Origin: Escherichia phage Ecwhy_1
Length of the DNA: 64,000 nucleotides
Sequence record: MH791411.1
Strand: one strand, 5' to 3'
A program made the position numbers and the translations under genes. Numbering within the stretch: the first letter of the stretch is position 1; every line of letters starts with the position of its first letter. Of the stretch, positions 15,007-20,447 are shown one piece after another. Under the pieces are notes generated by a model, which worked only from the letters and a program-made list of their open reading frames with translations, was not told the origin of the DNA and ran no database searches.

Positions 15007-15826
<820 letters not shown>

Positions 15827-16189
15827 ATCACCAACTTTAATTAAAAAAAATGGATGGTGACGCTTTTAAACGCCGCTGTTAATTCAGCTTTATAACCACC
15901 CGTTTTAACTTGCCTTTCGGCTACCTTGACGTGGGGCGTACAGGCTACTAAAAGCAACTACTGTAAACATATTTCCACGCCTTACCCTTTTAAATAAAAG
16001 TCCATCCGGTTTTCCAGTTTGGTGAAGGACTGTCACCTCTAGTTTAAACCTGCTAGTCAAGTAATAATTGCCTATCGTCCAATTATCAAACCCGTCTAGG
16101 TTAACATTCACCACTTCCTAGAGTACCAGAGATCTTGTTCTGGATTGCATCGACGTAACTTACACCATATACGTCTGATTGTGGAATTC

Positions 16190-16214
16190 ATTATATCAGT
16201 ACTGAACTATTTAG

Positions 16215-16218
<4 letters not shown>
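16190..16218 (-). promoter_or_regulatory. consensus sigma-70-type promoter TTGACT-N17-TATAAT
   Basis: Exact -35 and -10 hexamers with a 17-nt spacer on the minus strand; followed by about 340 nt without a convincing ORF, then the tRNA cluster. Confidence 0.6.
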
Positions 16219-16640
<422 letters not shown>

Positions 16641-16648
16641 CTTTTTAT

Positions 16649-16809
<161 letters not shown>

Positions 16810-16813
<4 letters not shown>

Positions 16814-16970
16814 ATTCGTACCAGTAGTTCAATTAAGTACATTTCATATGCTGGATCGTTGATAAGTTTATCATACAGATGTGGCTCTGAAATGAATTCC
16901 CAATGATACTTTAGCCATTTACCGATACCCGAATATCTAAAATTAATGTCATTCATCCATTCTTCATGTG

Positions 16971-16974
<4 letters not shown>
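16810..16974 (-). CDS. MTHEEW-family small protein (54 aa), copy B
   Basis: Hand translation: MTHEEWMNDINFRYSGIGKWLKYHWEFISEPHLYDKLINDPAYEMYLIELLVRI; ATGA stop/start overlap with copy C. Confidence 0.5.
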
Positions 16975-17240
<266 letters not shown>

Positions 17241-18469: not shown

Positions 18470-18640
18470 CTATTCCCTAAATGCAAGCTCATATATGAAC
18501 CATCGATTTCCATCCTCATCTAGTACATATAAATCGAACTGATGTTTGTCTCGTAAAATATCGTAATGACCATCACGAAATCCATTCCCAAACAGATCAT
18601 ATCGTTCTTTCATAATAGACATCCATTCTTCATGTGTCAT
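18470..18640 (-). CDS. MTHEEW-family small protein (56 aa)
   Basis: Hand translation: MTHEEWMSIMKERYDLFGNGFRDGHYDILRDKHQFDLYVLDEDGNRWFIYELAFRE; ATGA overlap with the upstream gene. Confidence 0.5.
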   Translation of the reverse strand: MTHEEWMSIMKERYDLFGNGFRDGHYDILRDKHQFDLYVLDEDGNRWFIYELAFRE

Positions 18641-19550: not shown

Positions 19551-19944
19551 TATATTTATCTTTATAAAAATCCATGATTTTAGTCAACAGTACTGCAATC
19601 GTATAATCTAAATCAGGATAAAGTAAATTGTACTGAAATTCTTCCTCTACACTATAGTTTGTGGTGCAGTACTGATAGTCTTTATAACCAATGGAAAAAT
19701 GGTTAGGATACAATGTACAACGAAAACGATATGCTTCATCTGTCATATAATCATTGTATTCAACACAGAAGTATAGTGATTTTGCATTTAATTCAATAAG
19801 CTCAACGAAACCATCAGGTAATGAATGGTTATAAATTACTGAATCTTCATTAAACCATTCATAGTATTTTTCCAAAAAATCACTAATGGATACATCCAGA
19901 CTTTGTATAGGTGGAGTTATGATAATTTGAACTTCTTTATTCAT
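19540..19944 (-). CDS. F-Q-x-S motif family protein (SVEEEFQYNLL)
   Basis: Six-frame ORF, 134 aa. Confidence 0.5.
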   Translation of the reverse strand: MNKEVQIIITPPIQSLDVSISDFLEKYYEWFNEDSVIYNHSLPDGFVELIELNAKSLYFCVEYNDYMTDEAYRFRCTLYPNHFSIGYKDYQYCTTNYSVEEEFQYNLLYPDLDYTIAVLLTKIMDFYKDKYNAA

Positions 19945-20447
19945 TTCGACCCCTTACTATATTTCACGTATGGGCTATCATACAGATCATAACTTTTTTG
20001 TGCACGTTCTTTTCGGCGTTCATACATGATTCTATCATAATCTTTGGCTTTCTGATTTGCTTCATTATACAATTTTAAAATAAGCAAAAAAGCATCAAGG
20101 TCGGGATAGTTTGCTGGATTGATAGTACTCAGCATAAATCGTTCTTCTTCAGTTCTAGCTAAGTCAAACTCGTACTTAATAGTTTTATATCCACTCCATT
20201 TATATGTATGTGTTACTTTATTAGTAAGTACATTGTATCCAACGAAGTCAGTACTACCATCAAGTACGCGAGTAATCATAATAGATGTACCAATGACAAT
20301 CTGCACAGAACTCATTTCTGAAGTTTTAAAGTAATATATATTACCACGTCGCAGATTAACTTCTCGATCTCCAATGCGAACATGCTTAATAACTTCAGTT
20401 AATGGTTCTGGGACACCACGAATAGGCATGTTAGTATTCCTCAACAA
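19941..20447 (-). CDS. F-Q/M-x-S motif family protein (variant EEERFMLSTI)
   Basis: Six-frame ORF, 168 aa. Confidence 0.45.
   Translation of the reverse strand: MLRNTNMPIRGVPEPLTEVIKHVRIGDREVNLRRGNIYYFKTSEMSSVQIVIGTSIMITRVLDGSTDFVGYNVLTNKVTHTYKWSGYKTIKYEFDLARTEEERFMLSTINPANYPDLDAFLLILKLYNEANQKAKDYDRIMYERRKERAQKSYDLYDSPYVKYSKGSK

Follow-up and report, generated by a model that had tools for sequence, protein, structure and literature searches.

The 64,000-nt window analysed here, from Escherichia phage Ecwhy_1 (MH791411.1), contains an intergenic stretch of about 350 nt at 15840–16189, in a transfer RNA (tRNA) region of the window in which all genes lie on the minus strand; positions are those of the window unless another sequence is named. 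An earlier reading of the letters and open reading frames (ORFs), hereafter the sequence-only reading, had proposed that the stretch encodes one stable non-coding RNA. A structured non-coding RNA product is supported by covariation and by homologues in tRNA arrays; the count was wrong, however, because the stretch holds two RNA genes and not one. Positions 16218–15843 on the minus strand are predicted to form a non-coding transcription unit, in which a promoter is followed by two independent small-RNA genes, designated RNA A and RNA B, and these are almost certainly genuine structured non-coding RNA genes. The features of the locus are as follows.

16218–16190, minus strand: predicted sigma-70 promoter, TTGACT-N17-TATAAT with a TG extension, agreeing with the consensus at 11 of 12 positions
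16188–16000, minus strand: RNA A, 189 nt, with seven hairpins (H1–H7) and two pseudoknots (PK1 and PK2), from covariance model R1 and covariation
16149–16179, minus strand: H1 hairpin of RNA A, with the conserved loop motif GGYGY; 7 of 9 pairs changed on both sides
16064–16086, minus strand: H4 hairpin of RNA A, with the loop GACGAUA identical in all lineages; 7 of 7 pairs changed on both sides
16039–16062, minus strand: H5 hairpin and PK1 of RNA A; two covarying pairs in H5, PK1 100% paired
16056–16053 with 16042–16039, minus strand: PK1, in which the H5 loop CUAG pairs with a CUAG behind an A-rich linker
16000–16037, minus strand: H6 hairpin (16037–16033 with 16025–16021), H7 hairpin (16017–16006), and PK2
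16030–16027 with 16003–16000, minus strand: PK2, in which the H6 loop GUCC pairs with the 3′-terminal GGAC; 100% paired
15988–15999, minus strand: AU-rich spacer UUUUAUUUAAAA separating the two RNA genes, read from the sequence
15987–15843, minus strand: RNA B, about 140 nt, from alignment A5 and covariance model R2
15928–15987, minus strand: 5′ domain of RNA B (B1), with the outer stem GGCGUGG/CCACGUC, the internal loop AAAUAU, and nested hairpins, from alignment A5 and pair counts
15912–15921, minus strand: tetraloop hairpin GCC-GAAA-GGC of RNA B, conserved in every copy, also in the element between tRNAs in phage EJP2
15843–15901, minus strand: Y-shaped, terminator-like three-way junction of RNA B (B2), with the closing stem GGGUGGU/ACCAUCC, two hairpins, and U8 (15850–15843)
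15905–16114, minus strand: 69-aa ORF with a GTG start, judged spurious, broken in homologues
15826–15455, minus strand: next credible gene, 123 aa, PHROG 38341, function unassigned and not part of the RNAs, from the ORF list and the PHROG match

The promoter described by the sequence-only reading was found in place, its −35 and −10 hexamers lying 17 nt apart, within the 16–18 nt usual for sigma-70 promoters, and between it and the ATG at 15826 there is no credible gene, as that reading had also stated; the only ORFs in this interval are those at 15905–16114 (69 aa) and 15841–15957 (38 aa). In a BLAST search, the window region was 97–99.5% identical to Asteriusvirus jumbo coliphages (121Q, PBECO4, vB_Ec-M-J, and WPEC5), and the stretch was conserved in about 55–70 phage records in which the flanks were not. 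The GC content at the stretch reaches 0.41, compared with approximately 0.30–0.33 in the adjoining genes, and rises in the same way at the tRNAs. This retention without the flanks, together with the GC rise and the covarying helices, places the stretch far beyond chance.

RNAalifold on a MAFFT alignment mis-paired the 5′ half of RNA A, and the structure was then rebuilt by hand from eight close sequences and checked by pair counts, giving covariance model R1. R1 detected a single copy in the window (238.6 bits) and, outside the training set, full-length matches in phage KP13-16 (95.5 bits), Aeromonas phage avDM6 (78.7), sequence L011 (77.5), and Aeromonas phage 65 (75.4). Covariation was measured on the 17-sequence alignment obtained after this search, and the compensatory changes that the sequence-only reading had suggested seeking among related phages were abundant. 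Standard pairs filled 97.8% of the cells of the structure, compared with 82.0% in shuffled alignments and at most 39.7% when the partners were slid; 31 of the 49 pairs were changed on both sides, compared with no more than 9 when slid, and this value was reached in 0 of 500 shuffles; and the covariation score was 0.399, compared with 0.134 after shuffling and at most 0.074 after sliding. Every pair of H3 and H4 covaries. PK1 changes from CUAG/CUAG to CUGG/CCAG in KP13-16 and in sequence L025, and PK2 is different in almost all lineages (GUCC/GGAC, ACCC/GGGU, AUCC/GGAU, GCCC/GGGC, and UCCC/GGGA), with two of its pairs covarying (GC:8/AU:6 and UA:10/CG:6). By this comparison, both are H-type pseudoknots, with PK2 locking the 3′ terminus of RNA A into the H6 loop. 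Conserved G-U pairs (e.g., UG:15 and UG:14 of 16) are compatible only with the tRNA-sense strand, and the unpaired motifs GGYGY (H1 loop), GACGAUA (H4 loop), CGGG, AGAGGU, and AUGG are invariant. Two further pairings were discarded. A closing helix P1 (UCCA/UGGA) showed no covariation, was paired in 85.9%, and was broken in four lineages, and it was replaced by PK2; a long-range pairing of the CGG of J3/4 with the CCG of H7 could not be told apart from H7 with the available sequences and does not hold up in the Aeromonas phages.

RNA B also carries compensatory substitutions beyond the controls, the general mark of a structured non-coding RNA that RNA A bears as well. Its cells were paired in 94.9%, 10 of its 38 pairs showed double changes, and its covariation score was 0.178, compared with 0.093 after shuffling; helices B5 and B7 have three covarying pairs each, and the 5′ domain shows compensatory changes in the metagenomic contig L016 and in Kuravirus. 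The hairpin quoted by the sequence-only reading, gacgcttttaaacgccgc, proved to be real, being the plus-strand reading of helix B7 (15859–15874). At the 3′ end, the 7-bp closing stem followed by A and U8 is predicted from the sequence to be an intrinsic terminator, and because B2 is branched, a scan for simple hairpin terminators misses it. Elements of the B2 type also occur alone: the R2 search located them in Klebsiella phage K64-1 (L005, 2906–3003 and 4546–4652), in L017 (328–425 and 1717–1816), and in EJP2 (L029, 1495–1592). In K64-1, a copy lies directly after tRNA-Ser and directly upstream of RNA A, and others follow tRNA-Arg in the RaK2-like contig or lie between tRNA-Ser and tRNA-Arg in EJP2. 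The loops UAUAAA and GAAUUNA of this recurring element are strongly conserved, and some copies contain TTGACA-N17-TAnTAT. We read the three-way junction as a putative reusable branched terminator module, which may also act as a promoter or serve some separate purpose. A weak R2 match on the plus strand at 19794–19869 (16.9 bits, E = 0.028) folds poorly and was taken as noise. The spacer UUUUAUUUAAAA between the two RNAs is likely to be a processing site for an RNase E-type endonuclease.

The 5′ domain of RNA B recurs alone, according to BLAST, in an ORF-poor region of about 650 nt in Kuravirus podophages. In Kuravirus vB-EcoP-XT32 (L006), this region (1226–1876) has no credible gene on the same strand, the copy of the domain lies at 1573–1627, further GC-rich hairpins are present, and the sole annotated coding sequence is a 56-aa ORF on the opposite strand; the region could hold further unannotated RNAs.

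RNA A has travelled separately from its neighbours. In the BLAST search, its first 187 nt matched unannotated gaps in the tRNA arrays of unrelated phages at 85–92% identity, namely the T4-like Bragavirus phages Proteus PM2 and Pm5461 and Shigella SdyM_006, Morganella phage Mm5, and the T5-like Novosibvirus phages (Proteus phages 1 and 2 and M4H10_20). Weaker matches were found in KP13-16 of the Stephanstirmvirinae and in the T4-like Aeromonas phages 65, avDM6, and CC2. The Klebsiella phages of the RaK2/K64-1 type (Alcyoneusvirus) matched at 81% over query positions 164–506 only, which is exactly the intergenic part, with no flanking genes. Altogether, at least six phage lineages have a homologue of RNA A within a tRNA array, in every case oriented like the tRNAs and with unrelated flanks, whereas the copy in the window stands in the tRNA region under its own predicted promoter. 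The sequence-only reading had pointed to the small stable RNAs of the T4 tRNA region as an analogy, and this placement was borne out by homologues lying flush against tRNAs in T4-like and T5-like arrays. The positions are as follows.

PM2 and SdyM_006: after the CCA end of tRNA-Gly, 9–12 nt before tRNA-Asp
Proteus phage 1 (L007, 2501–2684): between tRNA-Leu(UAG) and tRNA-Ser(GGA)
KP13-16: between tRNA-Leu(UAG) and tRNA-Ser(UGA)
Mm5: before tRNA-Glu
Aeromonas phages (65 and avDM6): before tRNA-Thr
EJP2: before tRNA-Ser(GCU)

RNA A and RNA B both belong to families of mobile RNA genes, whose members in the tRNA arrays of other phages often abut the CCA end of one tRNA and stop a few bases short of the next. 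Several observations concern the arrays themselves. In T5 (L032, 11023–11607), the HNH endonuclease gene hegC fills the slot between tRNA-Leu(UAG) and tRNA-Ser(GGA), where Proteus phage 1 has RNA A, and in SdyM_006 the tRNA-Gly in front of RNA A is itself immediately preceded by a segD-like endonuclease gene; RNA A may have been transferred with the help of homing endonucleases. The array of KP13-16 (L008) that holds RNA A also has, at 973–1079 and 1656–1731, two sub-threshold Rfam matches, one to YrlA (39.7 bits, gathering threshold 69) and one to the tmRNA clan, and may hold other tRNA-like RNAs. For Mm5 (L010, PP397179.1), the tRNA strand given in GenBank is opposite to the ARAGORN calls and to the strand on which the sequence reads as tRNA. 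An odd tRNA-Ser call with the anticodon ACT was obtained in EJP2 (L030, 369–458), and two odd tRNA calls in Aeromonas phage 65 (L003, 235–310 and 1144–1233), one tRNA having a two-base anticodon call and one long-arm tRNA-Ser just reaching the Rfam gathering threshold for tRNA-Sec (47.7, threshold 47).

Sister phages show that the two RNAs are separate units. JNE01 lacks RNA A, and the same promoter there leads straight into RNA B. EJP2 has the promoter in a diverged but alignable form (TTGATG..., with an identical −10 element), RNA A, and tRNA-Ser, without RNA B or the 123-aa gene. In K64-1, a separate promoter (TTGAAC-N17-TATAAT) lies between RNA A and RNA B, and in the metagenomic contig L016, a promoter and RNA A are followed by a second promoter and then by tRNA-Arg and RNA B. 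The idea of one 350-nt RNA was rejected because A and B occur apart and have separate promoters in other phages. In the Asteriusviruses phAPEC6 (L033, approximately 740–800), G17, and Sharanji, the promoter is followed only by the first 37 nt or so of RNA A, a stump joined to the 123-aa gene; these phages are natural deletions of both RNAs. With only A in some sister phages, only B in others, and neither in a third set, the two RNAs are dispensable cassettes. The 22-nt core of the promoter, TTGACTAAATAGTTCAGTACTG, is present in three identical copies in the window (16618–16639, 16197–16218, and 15437–15458, all minus strand), each heading one small cassette: a 121-aa gene, RNA A and RNA B, and tRNA-Ser, respectively. 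Some variant breakpoints in the sister phages fall at or next to this repeat, which suggests promoter-mediated shuffling of cassettes, with the 22-nt repeat as an obvious candidate substrate. Promoter-early stem-loop (PeSL) cassettes, in which promoter repeats flank shuffled cassettes, have reportedly been described in T4-type phages by Arbiol, Comeau and Krisch in 2010. The locus shares with them the repeated promoter cores that bound small cassettes gained and lost; however, the PeSL concept covers the movement of cassettes and not an RNA product, whereas the cargo here is a structured RNA.

Comparison with known RNAs placed neither RNA A nor RNA B in a described family. As the sequence-only reading had stated, the stretch is not a tRNA: ARAGORN and the Rfam tRNA and transfer-messenger RNA (tmRNA) models found nothing at 15840–16189, and the closing helix of the 5′ and 3′ ends that a tmRNA would have was unsupported. 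The covariance-model search that the same reading had proposed, a scan against the 4227 models of Rfam 15 (including RNase P, 6S, group I and II introns, riboswitches, ribozymes, YrlA, GOLLD, and ROOL), gave no family match, a permissive scan yielding only P31 at 14.1 bits (E = 7), and there was no Rfam 15 match on RNA A in seven loci with divergent homologues. Resemblances to RNase P (GAGG...AGUCC) and to the R/S elements of group I introns (GACUA...AGUCC) were rejected, as their nucleotides vary or serve PK1 and PK2 and no Rfam match accompanies them. BLAST against 5,426 complete E. coli genomes found no match, and against 72,556 plasmids found nothing significant, only one 32-nt match at chance level (E = 0.09); an origin from the host or a plasmid was therefore set aside. 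Scans with conserved patterns returned four and three loci in two viral collections and 11 loci in metagenomes, of which about five were real (phage-like contigs), and a single exact-pattern scan of one genome per bacterial or archaeal species returned three loci, all of them chance matches. These scans indicate that the RNA A family is rare and confined to phages. In the searchable literature, neither these sequences nor an RNA at this locus was found described.

The closest counterparts in position are the stable RNAs of T4 and T5. In the T4 record, rnaC (species 1, 139 nt) and rnaD (species 2, 119 nt) are annotated directly after tRNA-Arg; like RNA A and RNA B, they are small RNAs of a phage tRNA cluster, co-oriented with the tRNAs and of unknown function, and they are co-transcribed with the tRNAs and dispensable in the laboratory. 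Unlike them, RNA A and RNA B have no homology to rnaC or rnaD in sequence or structure: R1, R2, and a broader covariance model built from all lineages (R3) gave no match in T4 positions 68500–74500 (the rnaC/rnaD region), and both lack the tRNA-like T-arm (GGTTCGAATCC) that forms the end of rnaC. The only BLAST match to T4, in a subject of 461 nt, was 17/21 (E = 0.07) and joined the 5′ end of rnaC with the beginning of RNA B; homology of the 5′ domain of RNA B to rnaC through the shared motif GGAAAUAU was considered and dropped, as R2 gave it no support. The T5 record annotates RNAI, RNAIII, RNAIV, RNA1, RNA2, RNA2H, RNA3, and RNAX as “stable RNA with unknown functions,” scattered among tRNAs, promoters, and genes for homing endonucleases, and a T5-like Proteus phage likewise carries RNA A among its tRNAs. 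The T5 RNAs nevertheless differ, in that R1, R2, and R3 gave no match in T5 positions 20000–52000 with E up to 10 and that the slot between tRNA-Leu(UAG) and tRNA-Ser(GGA) holds hegC instead. From their placement, RNA A and RNA B are most likely of the same kind as the T4 and T5 stable RNAs, although they belong to new families.

More distant likenesses concern the fold. In the tRNA-like structure of turnip yellow mosaic virus (TYMV), the 3′ end pairs with a hairpin loop, and the resulting coaxial helix resists 3′ exonucleases. The terminal strand of RNA A similarly pairs with a hairpin loop, as in a pseudoknot of the TYMV type; it differs in having no CCA end, anticodon-like arm, or T-loop and in having H7 inserted in the connecting loop. 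GOLLD and ROOL are complex RNAs that phages carry beside tRNA genes (PMC12286853). RNA A shares with GOLLD, ROOL, and YrlA a complex fold supported by covariation and a poorly known function, whereas it is only 189 nt long, has no Rfam match, and has no long stem of the Y-RNA type joining the 5′ and 3′ ends.

The patchy, horizontally transferred, and dispensable distribution of the two RNAs is the pattern of phage genes that are accessory or serve host interaction, and RNA A and RNA B are probably trans-acting, dispensable accessory RNAs. They would be transcribed from the sigma-70 promoter in the window, and by read-through of the tRNA operon in other phages. Host processing enzymes could then release them, an endonuclease of the RNase E type by cutting the AU-rich flanks (AAUU behind the upstream CCA, and UUUUAUUUAAAA behind RNA A), and RNase P where a tRNA follows the RNA. 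PK2 of RNA A and the terminator structure of RNA B may shield the 3′ ends from exonucleases, so that the RNAs would persist and might act in trans as a compact protein-binding decoy, sponge, or scaffold. Because its fold is compact and pseudoknotted, its invariant loops are short, and it has no long free seed, RNA A may be recognized by a protein rather than act by antisense pairing; that it binds a host or phage protein, instead of acting by catalysis or antisense pairing, is a possibility to which we give somewhat less than an even chance. The advantage would be accessory and dependent on the host, its most plausible field being tRNA, translation, and RNA decay, or anti-defence. Phage tRNA arrays have been argued to counter defences that target tRNAs (PMC10264068), and a tRNA-directed defence or processing enzyme as the target of RNA A is a rather unlikely, tentative suggestion. 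It is similarly speculative that RNA A founds a new functional class, a horizontally mobile, doubly pseudoknotted RNA that is placed by phages among their tRNA genes and neutralizes or hijacks a host tRNA or RNA enzyme, either by catalysis or, as RNA alone, by inhibiting an anti-phage nuclease or serving as its decoy. Taken together, the reading with its trans-acting accessory role has, in our view, a slightly better than even chance.

Several points weigh against this interpretation. Minimum free energy (MFE) folding of single sequences is only modestly better than that of shuffles (z = −1.63 for RNA A and −2.39 for RNA B), and the MFE fold of RNA A conflicts with the fold supported by covariation and is wrong in its long-range part; its long-range helices, which have no support in the alignment, were rejected. 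Since MFE folding of RNA A is unremarkable, the case is built on comparative evidence, and there some of the 85–92% identity seen across unrelated phages may be due to recent transfer and not to constraint. No protein gene common to the surroundings of RNA A was found across the lineages, and a partner protein gene in cis was rejected for this reason. The natural loss of both RNAs in phages of the phAPEC6 type shows that growth on laboratory hosts does not require them. RNA A has no part that resembles an anticodon stem-loop, which leaves the version with a tRNA-nuclease decoy without direct structural support, and the words “stable” and “processed” are what we infer for RNA A and RNA B from their sequences.

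Among the alternatives, a protein product has in its favour that several GenBank records (121Q, as gene 129, and others) call a “hypothetical protein” over the stretch, where none annotates an RNA, and that the 69-aa frame is open in the closest relatives. The ORF begins with GTG and has no ribosome-binding site, as the sequence-only reading had observed; that reading had also held that conservation of the frame would speak against an RNA, and the frame proved not to be conserved. It is interrupted by stops or frameshifts in eight lineages, being broken in K64-1, the RaK2-like contig, PM2, Pm5461, SdyM_006, Mm5, L016, KP13-16, both Aeromonas phages, and L011, and in the RNA A homologues the longest stop-free stretch in any frame is 29–52 codons. 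The ORF crosses the boundary between the independently inherited modules A and B, matches no Pfam family, and carries substitutions that track base-pairing and not codon structure. A real small protein gene at 15905–16114 is therefore barely credible. Selection on DNA, with the stretch serving as an origin, as a promoter array, or as the boundary of a cassette for recombination or homing and with the RNA structure incidental, would account for the three identical promoter cores that bound cassettes, the breakpoints at or next to them, the promoter-like sequence in some B2 copies, and the endonuclease genes beside RNA A in SdyM_006 and in its slot in T5. However, the 31 compensatory pairs, the two covarying pseudoknots, and the strand-specific G-U pairs indicate selection on a folded RNA in the tRNA sense; mobility at the DNA level accounts for the spread of the cassettes and not for the retention of the fold, and this explanation is very improbable. 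A cis-acting leader, attenuator, or processing spacer for the 123-aa gene or the tRNA operon would fit the position of the terminator structure of RNA B, which both in the window and in JNE01 stands 16 nt ahead of the 123-aa gene's ribosome-binding site, and the recurrence of B2-type elements at the ends of tRNA units in other phages. Yet the downstream neighbour changes with the lineage (in K64-1 it is another gene, and elsewhere it is tRNA-Ser, -Asp, -Glu, or -Thr), A and B are found apart, and the 123-aa gene of phAPEC6 appears to be served by the same promoter without either RNA, so that a cis-acting role is quite improbable.

Two other alternatives accept the RNAs and assign them different activities. 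RNA A could be a ribozyme that excises itself from tRNA-array transcripts or acts on tRNAs, for example as a minimal RNase P-like or repair/ligation RNA. Its compact double-pseudoknot fold and invariant unpaired nucleotides (GACGAUA, CGGG, AGAGGU, and AUGG) are typical of catalytic or ligand-binding RNAs, and it is obligatorily placed beside tRNAs with no partner protein gene in cis. Nevertheless, no Rfam ribozyme or RNase P model matched even at E up to 10, the absence of a closing helix between the 5′ and 3′ ends (the failure of P1) is unfavourable, the resemblance to CR-I of RNase P and to group I R/S uses nucleotides that vary or belong to PK2, and the own promoter and ordinary AU-rich spacer in the window make self-cleavage unnecessary; a ribozyme is thus improbable. 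Base-pairing regulatory small RNAs (sRNAs) of the Hfq or ProQ type, acting on host or phage mRNAs, would suit RNA B best, whose 3′ architecture of a terminator structure and U8 is in the style of enterobacterial sRNAs; in addition, both RNAs have their own promoters in some phages, and both are accessory and variable in presence. RNA A, on the other hand, offers hardly any long stretch that is both conserved and unstructured and might act as a seed; the single-stranded motifs that it does conserve are short ones within junctions and loops, and its conservation from Aeromonas to Escherichia phages would require an mRNA target that is conserved as well. We regard the sRNA explanation as unlikely, and return to RNA A and RNA B as accessory RNAs acting in trans, perhaps through a protein in the case of RNA A.

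The tRNA regions of T4 and T5 have been known since the 1970s to encode small stable RNAs, which are still recorded as having no known function. RNA A adds a new family with a complex, well-supported fold, seven hairpins and two pseudoknots in 189 nt, and a clear record of transfer among virulent phages of Enterobacterales and Aeromonas that fall into at least six unrelated groups. The natural knock-outs in sister phages make its function testable on host panels, and the size of the RNA suits pull-downs and structure determination. If RNA A did found a new functional class, it would provide a first handle on the purpose of the T4 and T5 stable RNAs after 50 years. The annotation is also corrected: several GenBank records carry a spurious “hypothetical protein” and no RNA at this locus, and Rfam has no model for it; alignments A4 and A5, with their consensus structures, could seed two new RNA families.

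The surroundings of the unit differ in two respects from the sequence-only reading. The stretch was described there as lying directly upstream of tRNA-Ser, whereas the 123-aa gene (15826–15455) and a further promoter copy (15458–15430) intervene; and every other interval was said to be coding, whereas further ORF-free gaps occur nearby, for example one of about 150 nt between tRNA-Met (15179) and tRNA-Ser(GCU) (15334). This second gap (15180–15333, minus strand) carries a TATAAT and AT-rich repeats. Searches of protein families found no known function for the flanking 121-aa and 123-aa proteins. According to ARAGORN and Rfam, the window has six tRNAs (two Thr, Asn, Met, Ser-GCU, and Ser-UGA), of which the tRNA-Met at 15101–15179 is odd in being 79 nt long with its anticodon at position 37. 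Beside the RNA unit lies a small paralogous family of tandem 54–56-aa ORFs starting with MTHEEWM (16649–16813, 16810–16974, 16971–17135, and 18470–18640, minus strand), and in the three adjacent members the stop and start codons overlap.

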